Below are positions 8,665 through 53,834 of a stretch of DNA of 64,000 nucleotides, one piece after another. The notes below the pieces were generated by a model. The model made no database searches. It had not been told where the DNA came from and saw only the letters and a program-made list of their open reading frames with translations. A program made the position numbers and the translations under genes. This DNA is from Octopus sinensis (Eukaryota), in contig NC_043002.1 in NCBI RefSeq assembly GCF_006345805.1, forward strand, positions 16,740,001 through 16,804,000, written 5' to 3'. Each line of letters begins with the position of its first letter. Within the stretch, counting starts at the first letter, position 1.

Positions 8665-9447
8665 AAAATGAAATGAAGTATTGATTGTCTTATTGAATAG
8701 GTGAAATGTTGAATATAAAATATTTGGGGACTCGTATATTTTCATGCGTTATAGTAGTCTTCAAGGTCCCAGGTTCTGACAGGAGTGTTGCAACTGTGGA
8801 ACACTCCTGTCATAGTTGCAGACACTGCTGTTGCAACACTCCAGTCACAACCTGGCACCTTGAAGACTACTATAACGCATGGAAGTATACTAGTCCCATG
8901 TGTGAAGGTGAGTGGCCAAGTGGTTAGGGTGTTGTACTCGCGATCTTATGATTGCGGTTTCAATTCCTGGTCCTAGTCGTACATTGTTTTGTGGAGGAGC
9001 AATGGCCCAGTGGTTAGGGCAGCGGACTCGCGGTCATAGGATCGCGATTTCGATTCCCAGACCGGGTGTTGTGAGTGTTTATTGAGCGAAAACACCTAAA
9101 GCTCCACGAGTCTCCGGCAGGGGATGGTGGTGAACCCTGCTGTACTCTTTCACCACAACTTTCTCTCACTCTTACTTCCTGTTTCTGTTGTACCTGTATT
9201 TCAAAGGGCCGGCCTTGTCACTCTGTGTCACGCTGAATATCCCTGAGAACTACGTTAAGGGTACACGTGTCTGTGGAGTGCTCAGCCACTTACACGTTAA
9301 TTTCACGAGCAGACTGTTCCGTTGATTCGGATCAACCTGAACCCACGTCGTCGTAACCGACGGAGTGCTTCCGTATACTAGTCCCATAATATTTCATATT
9401 AAACATTTCATCTATTCAATAAGACAATCAATACTTCATTTCATTTT
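8665..9447. mobile_element. Fold-back element in (TA)n whose right arm is split by a SINE insertion
   Basis: The left arm (about 8665-8795) pairs with 8830-8899 plus 9388-9447. The SINE block 8900-9372 is flanked by the 15-bp duplication GTATACTAGTCCCAT. Confidence 0.8.
8900..9372 (+). mobile_element. SINE family C (tRNA-Arg-like head) preceded by an extra diverged tRNA head
   Basis: Head 1 lies at 8900-8990 and the full copy at 8991-9372 (TGGCCCAGTGG, GGACTCGCGGTC, TTCGATTCC). A 15-bp TSD encloses both. Confidence 0.88.
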
Positions 9448-9926
9448 ACTATATATATATTATTTATACTATATATTCTATATCTTACATTAATATTATA
9501 AAGAATATAAATAAAACATAAAAAACAGAGTTGGAATTTCTTTGAATAATATATACCCCTCTATACACAAGCATACAAACCCCCTTTATACATATTATAT
9601 AATATAGATATATATGTGTGTGTGTGTGTGTGTGTGTGTGTGTGTGTGTGCAATGCACACACACGCGCAATACACACACTATATATATAGATATATATAA
9701 ATATAGAGAGAGGTTATGAGAGGTAATGGTGTCATTGAGACCCAGATGTGTCAGGTAATGCAGAATAAGTGCTATAGATAGACCATAGTTAAGTTCCAAG
9801 TTCGCTGATTTTGCGAATAAGGGGTTCAACGTTGGTCATATGTCAGCGTGTGTATATAAAATTTGTTTTCGTAATGAGATAAAAAAAAAACAAGGATGAG
9901 TAGGTTTTATAACATTTATACATAGA

Positions 9927-9977
9927 AGGTCTTATAGCTGTTTCCAGGATATTTATCATATCCCTTCATCGGAGACG
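9927..9977 (-). ncRNA. Degenerate minimal hammerhead motif at the 3' end of a probable Penelope-like UTR (about 9875-10620)
   Basis: The minus strand reads GTCT-CCGATGA-AGGGATAT(GATAA)ATATCCTG-GAAA-CAGCT-ATA/AGAC. The core has a U4C change, and ACAGCTAT is one change from the palindrome ACAGCTGT. Confidence 0.6.
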
Positions 9978-11197
9978 TTGTGAGAGAATAGTTAAGTAAT
10001 AGTTAATTTAGATATGATACAAAATAGAGTGAGGTGGAGGAAAAAAATAGATGTGTGATAGGTAGGGATATTGAATTTGTAGATCTTAGGCAAAATGGTA
10101 TACATATAAGATTCCAACAGTATTTAAAATTAGTCATTCCAAGTGTTTTTGAATCAAATTGACCTAAAAATAGGGAGTGTATTAGTATGGTCAAATCGAA
10201 AACAGAGAGGTATAAAGAAAGAGAACAAGAAGAGAAAAAGAAAAAGAGTGAGAAGAAGGAAAAGAGAGTAAGAAGAAAAGTAATAAAATAATAAATTAAT
10301 AAGGAAATAAAAAAAACAGGATGTGGGGAATAAAAGAAACAAAAAGAAAAATAAAGAAAAATAAGGTTAAAGTACCAGTTAATTGTCAGTGGAGATAATT
10401 TGAAAGTAGGAGTCGGGAGATAAAGGGTGACTGAGAGAGAAAGGTATTAAAGATAGAAGGAATAGGGGTGGGTGATAAAAGGTAAAGGAGTGGCAAATGT
10501 GTAGTGGTAGAATCTAAGTAGTGGGGTTGAGGGAGGGGGTTAGTAGTAATGAGAAAGGAATTTAGGATTCTGTATTATTTGGTGGGTCAGTTCTTAGTAA
10601 TATAAGAAAATATATTTGTGAAGATGTATACATATGTATACATTAGACATGTACAAATGTATTTATACAGATATTTATACATATCAATATCTATACATGC
10701 AACCATATTCGCACATGTGTACCCACATATACGTGCATCTGCATGTATTATCGCCCCTGCATACGCAGGTATATATACCTTGCATTAAGACCACCGCTTC
10801 ACAAACTATTCGACTGATTTTCTGTATTCTGTATTTGTGTCAACTTCTTAACTCTTGATTCACGATCACAAAGCACTGAACAGTAAATTACAACAATATT
10901 AAAGTGTGATTAATAGCTAAGCTAATTCAATTGCTAATACCTGTTAGCGCGGCTGACAGTCTGAGGCATATAAACATTTGGATATAAGATGTATGGTTTT
11001 AACTGAACAAATATATTATCAGAAATTTGAATAAATTTCGATAGTTCTTAATCTCTTAGTCCTGTTCTTCATACTGTGGTTCTTATATATTTGCTTAAAC
11101 TGTTTGGCCCAGTTTAAGGATGTTATCAAAAAATTGTCGTAAGTTACTAAATGTATGCGAATAATATAGTGAACTACAGAATAATATAATGAAATAG

Positions 11198-11612
11198 GGC
11201 GGCGAGCTGGCAAATTCGCTGGCGCGCTGGACGATGTGCTTGGCGGTATTTCGTCTGCCGCTACGTTCTGAGTTCAAATTCCGCCGAGGTCGACCTTGCC
11301 TTTCATTCTTTCGGGGTCGATTAAATAAGTACCAGTTACGCACTGAGGTCAATATAATCCACTTAATCCGTTTGTCTGTCCTTGTTTGTCCCTTCTGTGT
11401 TTAGCCCCTTGTGGGTAGTAAAGAAATAGCTATTTCGTCTGCCTTTACGTTCTCTGTTCAAATTCCGCCGAAGGCGACTTTGCCTTTCATCATTTCGGGG
11501 TCGATTAAATAAGTACCAGTTACGCACTGGAGTCGATGTAATCTACTTTATCTTGAGGTCTGTCCTTGTTTGTCCCCTGTAAGTTTAGCCCCCTTGGGGT
11601 AAATAAAGATAT
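11198..11612 (+). mobile_element. SINE family A, dimer with headless second unit
   Basis: GGCGGCGAGCTGGC...GTAGTAAAGAAATAG is followed by a restart at TATTTCGTCTGCC (11431). Confidence 0.88.
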
Positions 11613-51461: not shown

Positions 51462-52190
51462 TATCTGTAATATACTCTATTTATCCAGAAACAGAAAATT
51501 GAAAGCTGCACGAAGTTATAGTAATGCCAAACAAAATAAATCAATCAATAATGCTCCAATATTTCCAGACTCCTTTAAGTTTCAAAACATCTATTTCATA
51601 GTGAAGTCTCCTATTATCCACCTCAAACATTCTAAATTTCAAATACAAAAGTAAAAAGAACATTCGGATTTTATATATATTGTTAAACTATTCTACTTTA
51701 GCTTCAAGAGGACCTGACAGCCGATATCGACATAAGCAACCGTAAGAAGCAAACTGTTCAGTAGTCTCGATTTTCCTACAAACTCATTATGAAACATGCG
51801 TACGCACACGCACGCAAACGAGTGTGCATATGAGGATACACATCATAGAAGAACAGAATTGAATATCGGAACAGGATAACGCACGAGGACGGAAAGTGTC
51901 GCTGGAGAGATCACAGGTGTGTTACGAAAGATTTCCGGACAATGCACATGAGTTAAAATAGGAAGTGATAAACTCCTGAAGAGCGAATATATAATGCGTG
52001 TGATTATTTGCCCGCACCTCCCCAAAAATGAGCATGCCAAAAGACAACTATATATATATACATACATATATATACATACATTTATATATACATATATATA
52101 CACATATATATATATATATATAATATATATATATATATATATATATATATATTATATATATATATATACACACACACACATATATATATA

Positions 52191-52913
52191 GTCAATAATA
52201 AAGGGTAAAATTAATTAATTATTAATTAATAATTTTACCAAGTAGTGTTCAGTATGTAAAAATACCATTTATACTATATTTAGAACATTACGTAATATAA
52301 TTAGGGTTCAGTAAAAAAAAATTTACTTTACCACACACCGAACTTTTAGAAATAGCAGCCAAAAAATTTAGCTATTTCCTCTACTATAAGAAAAGTCTCC
52401 CAGACAATGTATACTCAAAACTAATTCACGTAGGTATAGAGGGGAAAAATAACGAAAGATCACACGTACATCGATTACTTGAGAACTCCGTTTCTGGATT
52501 AGTTAGATATAGAGATACTAGAAATACATACTCCTATCAACATTTCCGTCATCAGCCCAAGATTTCGTTAAGTTTAAATTTGAGAGCACAAAAAATCGAA
52601 CATACACGTCTGATATGAGTAATCCCAGACAAAACATCTTCGACCGCCAGTACTAACGAATTCAAAAAGTATTCCCCAGCATCTCTATATCTAACTAATC
52701 CAGAAACGGCGTTCTCCAGTAATCGATGTACGTGTGATCTTTCGTTATTTTTCCCTCTATACCTGCGTGAATTATTTTTGTGTATACATTGTCTGGGAGA
52801 CTTTTCTTATAGTAGAGGTAATAGCTAAATTTTTTGGCTGCTATTTCTAAAAGTTCGGTGTGTGGTAAAGTAAATTTTTTTACTGAACCCTAATTATATA
52901 ACGTAATGTTCTA
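52191..52913. mobile_element. Fold-back Penelope-like remnant next to (TA)n
   Basis: Arms 52281-52516 and 52681-52913 are near-identical reverse complements around a 164-bp spacer. An unpaired tail lies at 52191-52280. Confidence 0.8.
52478..52561 (-). ncRNA. Hammerhead-like motif with long stem II
   Basis: The minus strand reads CTTGGG-CTGATGA-CGGA...TCCA-GAAA-CGGA-GTT/CTCAAG. Stem I is 6 bp, the triplet is GUU, and the base of stem II is imperfect. Confidence 0.6.
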
Positions 52914-53566
52914 TATATATTTATATTATAATCAGAGATACTGTCTCACCTTCTTTCTATTTGTTTCTCCGTCTTTCTCGGTCAAATATTTACCGTTTTT
53001 TTACTTATCCACACACCGTCTCTCCCGGTCATTCTCTCTCTTTCTTTGTCTCTCTTCCTTCTTTCTTTTCTGCTTCTCCCTACATTTCTCCACTCCTCTT
53101 ATTTTCTCCTTTCTAGCACCTCCCTCTCTTTGCATTGCCACATCCTCGCCACCACTCTCAGCCTACCTTTATACCTTTCAATACCCGTTTTCTTTCTCCA
53201 CACCCTTTTCGGTACCACTTAGCCATTCAGTTTCTCTTTTCACATAGCGTTCCGCTACTTGACTGCTGACCATTTCATTCATGCACTCTAGGGCTCTCAC
53301 CTAAGCACGCACTTTCAAATCCTGGTGCGTCTCATTTTCTATCCATTTTTACCAATTAATCACTCTAGATAATTCTCAAGGCACATTTTCATTTGCCTTA
53401 CTTCTGAAAGTTTTAACGTACGCTGTCTATAAGCTAAAAGGCCTGCAACGATTGTCATTGGATTACATTTTGTCCATTCCATCATTGATAAAATGAATCT
53501 ATTTTTGATCCACAACGCATCGCAACGAGTGAAGAAATGAAAAATTTCTTATTGAACTTGTTAAAA

Positions 53567-53834
53567 TTTGGAGTAAAGATTATTTGCCAACATATCATGG
53601 CAGGCATGGTTCAGGGCGAATGTTAGTGTTTATTTCCCTTCGTCTCGGAAATCGTGATACACAGATATTGTTTTGAGCTGAGTGGGGCTGCTAGATTTCC
53701 TTGTTCGAAAATATAATGACGTAGATCGTGTCGTATAGCCAACTGGAGACGATGTCTCCTGGGGCTAAATTACAGCAACATTCATCCTAAGCCAGGACTG
53801 CCATGTTATATTGGCAAATAATCTTTGCTCCAAA
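53567..53834. repeat. Older imperfect inverted repeat (about 60-bp arms)
   Basis: TTTGGAGTAAAGATTATTTGCCAACATATCATGGCAG... is mirrored by ...CTGCCATGTTATATTGGCAAATAATCTTTGCTCCAAA. Confidence 0.7.

Follow-up and report, generated by a model that had tools for sequence, protein, structure and literature searches.

Hammerhead-bearing fold-back repeats in an Octopus sinensis contig as probable truncated insertions of several Penelope-like element families

Penelope-like elements (PLEs) coding for an endonuclease (EN) of the GIY-YIG type along with the reverse transcriptase (RT), such as Penelope/Poseidon, Neptune, Nematis, Hydra and Naiad, are found as strongly 5'-truncated insertions with an adjacent inverted, 5'-truncated copy and a tail on one side. 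The copies meet head-to-head at palindromic junctions, and targets are microsatellites, with a bias towards (TA)n, without clear target duplication (Craig et al., 2021, PMC8557442; Arkhipova et al., 2013, PMC3846280). Self-priming has been proposed to explain the head-to-head junction (PMC3846280). The hammerhead ribozymes of metazoan PLEs have been reported to be minimal and of the dimer type, to include dual motifs, 100-700 bp from each other on opposite strands, and to show a U3-A8 variant of the core (Cervera and De la Pena, 2014, PMC4209133), and the descriptor used by Craig et al. (2021) has a 7-17-nt spacer, 'half cores' being noted at 35-50 nt. For the Anolis Poseidon element PAc, the tail is set by two internal sites of RT initiation that lie downstream of the hammerhead, the DNA nicked is AT-rich, and insertion in vitro does not require the ribozyme (Frangieh et al., 2024, PMC11167929). 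Studies of octopus repeats report PLE expansions, with no mention of hammerheads in their main texts, from which the supplements may differ (PMC13282606, PMC8967140). Here we analyze eight inverted repeats, several of them hammerhead-bearing, in a stretch of 64,000 nt from Octopus sinensis (assembly GCF_006345805.1, contig NC_043002.1, positions 16,740,001 to 16,804,000 of the forward strand), which is called the window and numbered from its first letter. It is animal DNA, with 34-35% GC, many (TA)n tracts and interspersed repeats.

These repeats are very probably 5'-truncated, dead-on-arrival insertions of several unrelated PLE families, in which the 3' end of the element stands head-to-head with a shorter inverted copy. 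The PLE origin is supported by the enrichment in hammerheads, the outward 3' ends, the tails of the sense arms, the evidence from sequencing contigs, a PLE-type RT and hammerhead loci in metagenomes. What is seen directly is the geometry and orientation of the repeats, the quality of their motifs, their multi-copy status, junctions that vary and a pair of fixed ends. We consider this reading right for five to six elements and unproven for three (8539, 13741 and 21253). An initial annotation of the window had proposed that several PLE families with a common architecture and a preference for TA tracts were present; the assignment and the preference are supported, but not for all eight repeats. 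Its idea of a distinct ribozyme cassette 'system' does not hold, since the architecture is that of the standard PLE insertion unit. That architecture is already in print, and the octopus case extends the known PLE pattern to an octopod genome and is no new system. Unlike the published units, with tails of 30-40 nt, the octopus copies have tails of 44-155 nt. The eight fold-backs, with the coordinates and identity of their arms, are the following:

8539-9600, plus strand: fold-back; arms 8539-8794/8830-8897+9387-9556 (211/229 aligned bases identical), 35-nt loop, tail of ~44 nt on the right, TA-rich on both sides; putative PLE, judged by shape only.
13741-14004, plus strand: short fold-back; arms 13741-13801/13841-13901 (92%), (TA)n adjoining on the left, 103-nt tail to a TA tract on the right; no hammerhead visible.
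14283-14765, plus strand: fold-back; arms 98% identical, an inverted one at 14438-14557 and, beyond a spacer, a sense one at 14645-14765 that ends in (TA)n.
21253-21519, no strand assigned: fold-back; 121-bp arms 21253-21373/21399-21519 (92%), 25-nt loop; lacks (TA)n, a target duplication and a convincing hammerhead.
22989-24713, plus strand: largest insertion; inverted pseudo-long terminal repeat (pseudo-LTR) 22989-23733, end of an open reading frame (ORF) 23734-23903, sense pseudo-LTR 23949-24665 (arms 22989-23733/23949-24665, 98%).
30762-30931, minus strand: very small insertion with (TA)n on both sides, composed of a tail of 67 nt, a hammerhead with its core at 30887 and an inverted arm of 30 nt; arms 30829-30855/30902-30931 (27/30).
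52191-52919, minus strand: fold-back of a multi-copy family; tail of 84 nt next to the sense arm at 52275-52519, with a spacer between this and the inverted arm at 52678-52919 (96%).
53567-53887, plus strand: fold-back of a very high-copy family; inverted arm 53567-53646 joined to the sense copy from 53648; arms 53567-53646/53746-53834 (83-84% over a block of 58-63 nt), tail of ~56 nt; flanks AT-rich, not (TA)n.

All eight repeats listed in the initial annotation were thus recovered, with arm identities of 83-98%, and they are unrelated in sequence as it had stated, with no mutual matches besides TA-rich ends. The one given as starting at 8665 is real but larger, being a single fold-back (8539-9556) whose right arm was split later by an insertion:

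8899-9386, plus strand: insertion or insertions, SINE-like (resembling short interspersed elements) by sequence reading, with no database match, flanked by a 15-bp direct duplication (8884-8898 and 9373-9387).

In the hammerhead-bearing fold-backs the sense copy consists of a 5'-truncated upstream piece, the hammerhead, 48-210 nt of 3' sequence, an optional tail and the target tract, while the inverted copy holds the 3' part only and is joined to it head-to-head. The orientation that had been claimed was found throughout: the sequence downstream of the ribozyme points outward in the four hammerhead-bearing fold-backs (4/4) and in 53567, and when the latter is counted the sense arm carries the extra unpaired tail in four of five. 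Placement relative to (TA)n was compared with random placement, a check the initial annotation had called for: an arm end lies no more than 12 nt from a (TA)5+ tract in 4/8 repeats, against 0.72 expected (p=0.003). With the unpaired tails included, six of the eight touch tracts, as had been claimed, with one no more than 8 nt away at both ends, a count that is partly circular because most tails were drawn up to the tract. The AT-rich or (TA)n target of PLEs is therefore recognizable, in these four repeats and in the AT-rich flanks of the 53567 family.

Hammerheads were sought window-wide with a relaxed descriptor that permits a U3-A8 core and a long stem II and was drafted only after the candidates were known, so that it is post hoc. 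It returned 12 candidates, the top six being 56962+, 14636+, 24571+, 52555-, 30887- and 9972-; six scored at least 6, compared with a mean of 0.87 and a maximum of 3 in 30 local shuffles. The five sites previously named (14624+, 24563+, 30842-, 52478- and 9927-) correspond to the cores ranked second to sixth (14636+, 24571+, 30887-, 52555- and 9972-), and the best-scoring hammerhead in the window, 56962+, had been overlooked. A pair had been claimed at 24563+/23044-; its sense member is the ranked 24571+ core, but the mirror motif at 23083- is damaged: two positions of its core are different, which makes U3.G8 an equally possible ancestral core.

The motif at 14636+ is of textbook quality, with a 6-bp stem I, a stem II region of 54 nt, a palindromic stem III and GUC at 14708. 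That of the largest insertion has a U3-A8 type core at 24571 and GUA at 24602; a 48-nt tail follows the sense pseudo-LTR, and (TA)n lies on both sides of the element. Both minus-strand motifs in fold-backs show a mismatch at the base of stem II: U.U in 30887, which has a 7-bp stem I, an imperfect long palindrome as stem III and its cleavage position at 30849, and C.A in 52555, with a 6-bp stem I, a stem II region of 53 nt and GUU at 52484. One further motif is unpaired, carries a core mutation (U4>C) and is likely dead:

9700-9976, minus strand: unpaired PLE-like 3' end with a type-I hammerhead, core 9972-9966, 7-bp stem II, cleavage position 9933.

These motifs share with the metazoan PLE hammerheads (PMC4209133) a short palindromic helix III, a helix I of 4-7 bp, an unpaired base before stem II (9972 and 56962), the U3-A8 core (24571), dual motifs on opposite strands, a prevalence of single truncated copies and a high family diversity per genome. 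Unlike those, with a helix II of 7-8 bp, the hammerheads at 14636-14708 and 52555-52484 have 53-54 nt between core halves, beyond the usual descriptor limits, and helix III of 30887 is 3-4 bp with an 8-nt loop. Hammerheads with a stem II of 53-54 nt would escape short-spacer descriptors. Overall, a sense-strand minimal type-I hammerhead near the 3' end was found in four fold-backs and in the 53567 family; none was seen in 13741 and 21253, and the case of 8539 is doubtful, a degenerate motif at ~8850-8897 combining a 5-bp stem I and a palindromic stem III with one extra core base and no clear stem II. The SINE-like insertion at 8899-9386 spans the predicted cleavage position of this degenerate motif. 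Readings of 21253 and of 14283-14437 as hammerheads were attempted by eye and discarded.

Contigs from 4 of 24 public sequencing runs, mapped onto 52191-54600, provided evidence on two families; joints were evaluated for 15 of 79 cases plus 12 of 24 in a second table, loose ends for 24 of 1073 rows and variants for 40 of 150. In run X1 the summed contig depth, which does not equal copy number, was 8,400-375,000 over 52191-52919 and 59,000-785,000 over 53568-53891, compared with 41-49 in most flanking bins. Depth in 52191-52919 peaked in the tail bin, at 375,000 compared with ~10,000 at the hammerhead, which fits the prediction of 5' truncation; the tail, multi-copy over 52191-52271, is part of the element. 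In each of these families the joints listed are scattered over many positions, and 1-23 additional bases are often present at them; this scatter argues against fixed terminal repeats. Both are high-copy families with variable inversion points, each with an inverted, 5'-truncated copy. Loose ends pile up behind 53826 (59 and 57 contigs in X1 and X5) and 53882 (55 and 52), with heterogeneous, AT-rich flanks beyond, indicating that the 53567 family has two fixed 3' ends 56 nt apart; in the window copy, one is the end of the inverted arm, which is short, and the other that of the sense arm, which is long. That sense copy begins at G12 of the family hammerhead (53648), with the cleavage position at 53659, and 31 contigs extend upstream of 53648 with the missing strand of stem I and an intact CUGAUGA core. 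They complete the hammerhead whose 3' half is in the window, so that 53567, listed without a ribozyme by the initial annotation, belongs to a ribozyme-bearing family. Truncation near the hammerhead fits 30829, 53567 and the copy at 22313 described below, but not 14438, 52275 and 22989, and the joints listed are spread out.

Reference PLE proteins were obtained by scanning metagenome contigs, often short, with a minimal-hammerhead pattern; of 79 matches, 30 were retained (GC<0.48, stem I>=3) and 49 discarded. Near-intact PLE ORFs adjoin minimal hammerheads in L126 (635-3064, plus strand), L160 (2-1312, plus strand) and L125, contigs that are probably host-animal DNA; that of L126 specifies an RT+GIY-YIG protein of 810 aa, and the hammerhead lies 200 nt beyond its end. 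Among the 30 animal-type matches, 5 have an inverted copy upstream and 5 have (TA)n within 200 nt, so the fold-back shape also occurs in unrelated animal-type loci. With an RT profile made from 13 ORF pieces of hammerhead-linked metagenome loci, and reversed and shuffled sequence as controls, the two best tiles of the window were in 41851-42300 (10.9 and 9.7 bits; controls no higher than 7.0), within the following remnant:

41790-42400, plus strand: decayed reverse transcriptase of PLE type (end of core and thumb), interrupted by many stops and frameshifts.

Frameshift-tolerant alignment of this remnant to four references gave z values of 8.9, 7.3, 3.6 and 0.1, and up to 3.3 on the opposite strand; the best was with L126 (score 70 versus 36.7+-3.7). 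The PLE-type RT reported at 41780 is thereby confirmed, but the role of autonomous partner suggested for it is not, since it is decayed and unlinked to the cassettes; neither a pseudo-LTR or hammerhead beside it nor a matching cassette elsewhere in the window was found.

Two EN remnants had also been proposed. One is a stop-free frame of 56 codons on the hammerhead strand, within the spacer of the 22989 insertion:

23734-23903, plus strand: end of an ORF.

We take the end of this frame to resemble the C-terminal pattern of GIY-YIG endonucleases. In Atlas (recognition 3002) its unnamed neighbors lie at 0.92-0.95 and a rank-23 cluster at 0.89 has GIY-YIG on 21% of its members, which is a lead only; Pfam, a homologue search and alignment to the EN references, namely two Neptune-like proteins, added no support. 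Its identification as EN is weakly supported, but it lies inside its own truncated insertion and is no autonomous partner. In the same insertion, (GAA)n/(GAT)n tracts of unequal lengths are present in the pseudo-LTR of both arms (23422-23610 and 24070-24215). The second proposed remnant, at 44690, was rejected as unsupported, with no Pfam match, no Atlas match (recognition 1341) and z no higher than 0.9 against the two Neptune-like references. Among other matches to the remnants, phmmer match P0002 is a low-complexity repeat artefact and that to densovirus VP1 (E 0.02-0.04) was dismissed as noise. No related locus was found in viral contigs, where a loose hammerhead pattern hit 85 loci, taken as mostly chance.

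Several results weigh against the PLE explanation. A stricter hammerhead scan gave one match against 0-2 in 20 shuffles, a total not above background. The initial annotation had suggested a check with the Rfam models, which did not call the motifs: no hammerhead exceeded the threshold, and the only match, to HH9 at 24557-24622, was below it (20.9 bits, E 1.5). The 8539, 13741 and 21253 repeats show no convincing ribozyme; 21253 and 53567 have no (TA)n flank; and among the listed variants of the 52555 family there are two in stem II, neither of which repairs the C.A base. Some of the listed joints could stem from contigs mapping to the inverted arm that the window itself contains. Protein searches with the RT and EN remnants gave nothing significant, Pfam being blank for all of them, the cassette spacers did not align to the two EN references (z no higher than 1.3), and no cassette could be extended to an intact RT-EN ORF. 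Finally, the 14438 repeat has an unpaired extension of 155 nt (14283-14437), which is long and on the inverted side; it could be either an unusually long tail or the 3' end of a second element. This extension folds strongly (-27.5 kcal/mol) and its end resembles that of the opposite arm.

For the ribozyme-less fold-backs (21253, 13741 and possibly 8539), it is unlikely, though less so than the other alternatives, that they are miniature inverted-repeat transposable elements (MITEs) or fold-back DNA transposons with terminal inverted repeats (TIRs). Their long, near-perfect arms with loops of 25-39 nt would suit such elements, as would the distance of 21253 from (TA)n, and the repeats annotated for Octopus vulgaris include both MITEs and TIR elements (PMC13282606). 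However, 21253 lacks a target duplication, none that is clear having been found at 52191 and 53567 either, and its 3' part weakly resembles a 3' end that abuts (TA)n at 51960-52048 (70.6% over 68 nt, E 0.013), while 13741 and 8539 extend one-sidedly to a TA tract and palindromes at the inverted junction are known in PLEs (PMC3846280). The fixed inner structure and fixed-length target duplication of MITEs were not seen in the 52191 and 53567 families, whose junctions are variable.

Another alternative, which we regard as improbable, is that some families are self-propagating, non-autonomous cassettes similar to retrozymes, with PLE proteins acting in trans to copy them in the form of short hammerhead units, as the 'system' of the initial annotation would imply. 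Non-coding, hammerhead-bearing repeats are indeed known as animal non-LTR retrozymes and as SINE-like repeats of Schistosoma (PMC7229834, PMC6765202, bioRxiv 10.64898/2026.07.22.740005); the former have been proposed to derive from PLE pseudo-LTRs (bioRxiv 10.64898/2026.07.22.740005), whose cis-sequences suffice for trans-mobilisation in a rotifer (PMC3846280), and the very high depth of the ~240-bp unit 53648-53887 would agree with such copying. Those repeats, however, form tandem arrays, whereas no tandem units with a hammerhead each occur in the window, where all are solitary or inverted; besides, junctions differ between copies, 31 contigs continue upstream of 53648 and the 22989 copy retains the end of an ORF. 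A third possibility, in which AT-rich DNA yields the hammerheads by chance and artefacts of assembly account for the hairpins, would fit the strict total, the post hoc descriptor and the Rfam outcome, but is highly improbable given that arms diverge by 2-17%, contigs from other runs span the arm-flank junctions, an independent consensus of loose ends completes a hammerhead exactly at 53648 and orientation is consistent in all cases.

If these repeats are truncated PLE insertions, published work would imply that the RT/GIY-YIG protein of the element nicks AT-rich or (TA)n DNA and that reverse transcription begins within the element RNA, downstream of the hammerhead, from either of two positions separated by 40-100 nt. 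The long end would result from one start and the short end from the other, hence the unpaired tail on one arm; copying would halt early at variable points, and two partial copies would be joined head-to-head. The 53567 family resembles PAc (PMC11167929) in its AT-rich targets and two fixed 3' ends, and differs in their spacing, 56 nt, the octopus side of this comparison being sequence only. With its dense young families, whose 3' ends can be measured, octopus is usable for experiments on whether PLE reverse transcription follows the two-start-site model. The hammerhead itself may be a passenger of the pseudo-LTR, built for dimer cleavage, as its palindromic stem III suggests, in tandem transcripts of full elements. 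In read-through RNA of a fold-back it is predicted to be buried in a long duplex: the probability of stem I, 0.94 and 0.98 for the motif alone, falls to ~0 in whole fold-backs. Since the inverted arm is predicted to sequester the ribozyme, the fold-backs are more likely sources of double-stranded RNA than active ribozymes. Rfam microRNA models match three of them below threshold, and hairpins of this kind can be mistaken in annotation for MITEs or precursors of microRNAs.

The best-scoring hammerhead belongs to an element of another kind:

56787-57090, plus strand: element with a tRNA-like head (56787-56860, A and B boxes), (AAT)n, an intact hammerhead of the minimal type, with its core at 56962 and GUU at 56997, and a 3' end.

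Its 3' end is common to a 5'-truncated second copy at 22313-22423 on the minus strand (83% over 120 nt), so that the window holds one full and one truncated copy, neither ending in (TA)n. Neither ARAGORN nor Rfam called a tRNA in the head, and no copies of the 56962 family were found in metagenome, genome or viral collections. We tentatively raise the possibility that octopods carry a tRNA-headed SINE transcribed by RNA polymerase III (Pol III), whose 3' half is a Penelope pseudo-LTR and which uses the RT/EN of PLEs instead of those of a long interspersed element. Alternatively, a PLE end could have inserted into the microsatellite tail of a SINE; one full copy fits this or a SINE family alike. 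A Pol III promoter combined with a hammerhead has a precedent in Schistosoma (PMC6765202), which the octopus element resembles, and no description of a tRNA-headed element with a PLE pseudo-LTR hammerhead was found in the literature searched. Such a PLE-dependent SINE, if real, would be a compact natural substrate for probing the role of the PLE hammerhead, and this element alone would exceed incremental interest.

Other features of the window include an intronless SMIM14/DUF2615 frame at 28999-29328 on the minus strand (Pfam E 6e-34), a single-exon gene or retrocopy with fold-backs on either side, whose closest named relative is a protein of Argonauta hians (86%), which by itself marks the host as an octopod cephalopod. 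A decayed RT fragment of non-LTR type lies at 3887-4800 on the plus strand (RVT_1, E 6.7e-05), and small palindromes are present at 44742-44767 (26 nt) and 58463-58512 (50 nt). An abundant SINE-like repeat occurs at 47115-47175 and 45731-45887/46243-46400, where head-to-head or inverted neighbors create a near-perfect palindrome of 51 bp.

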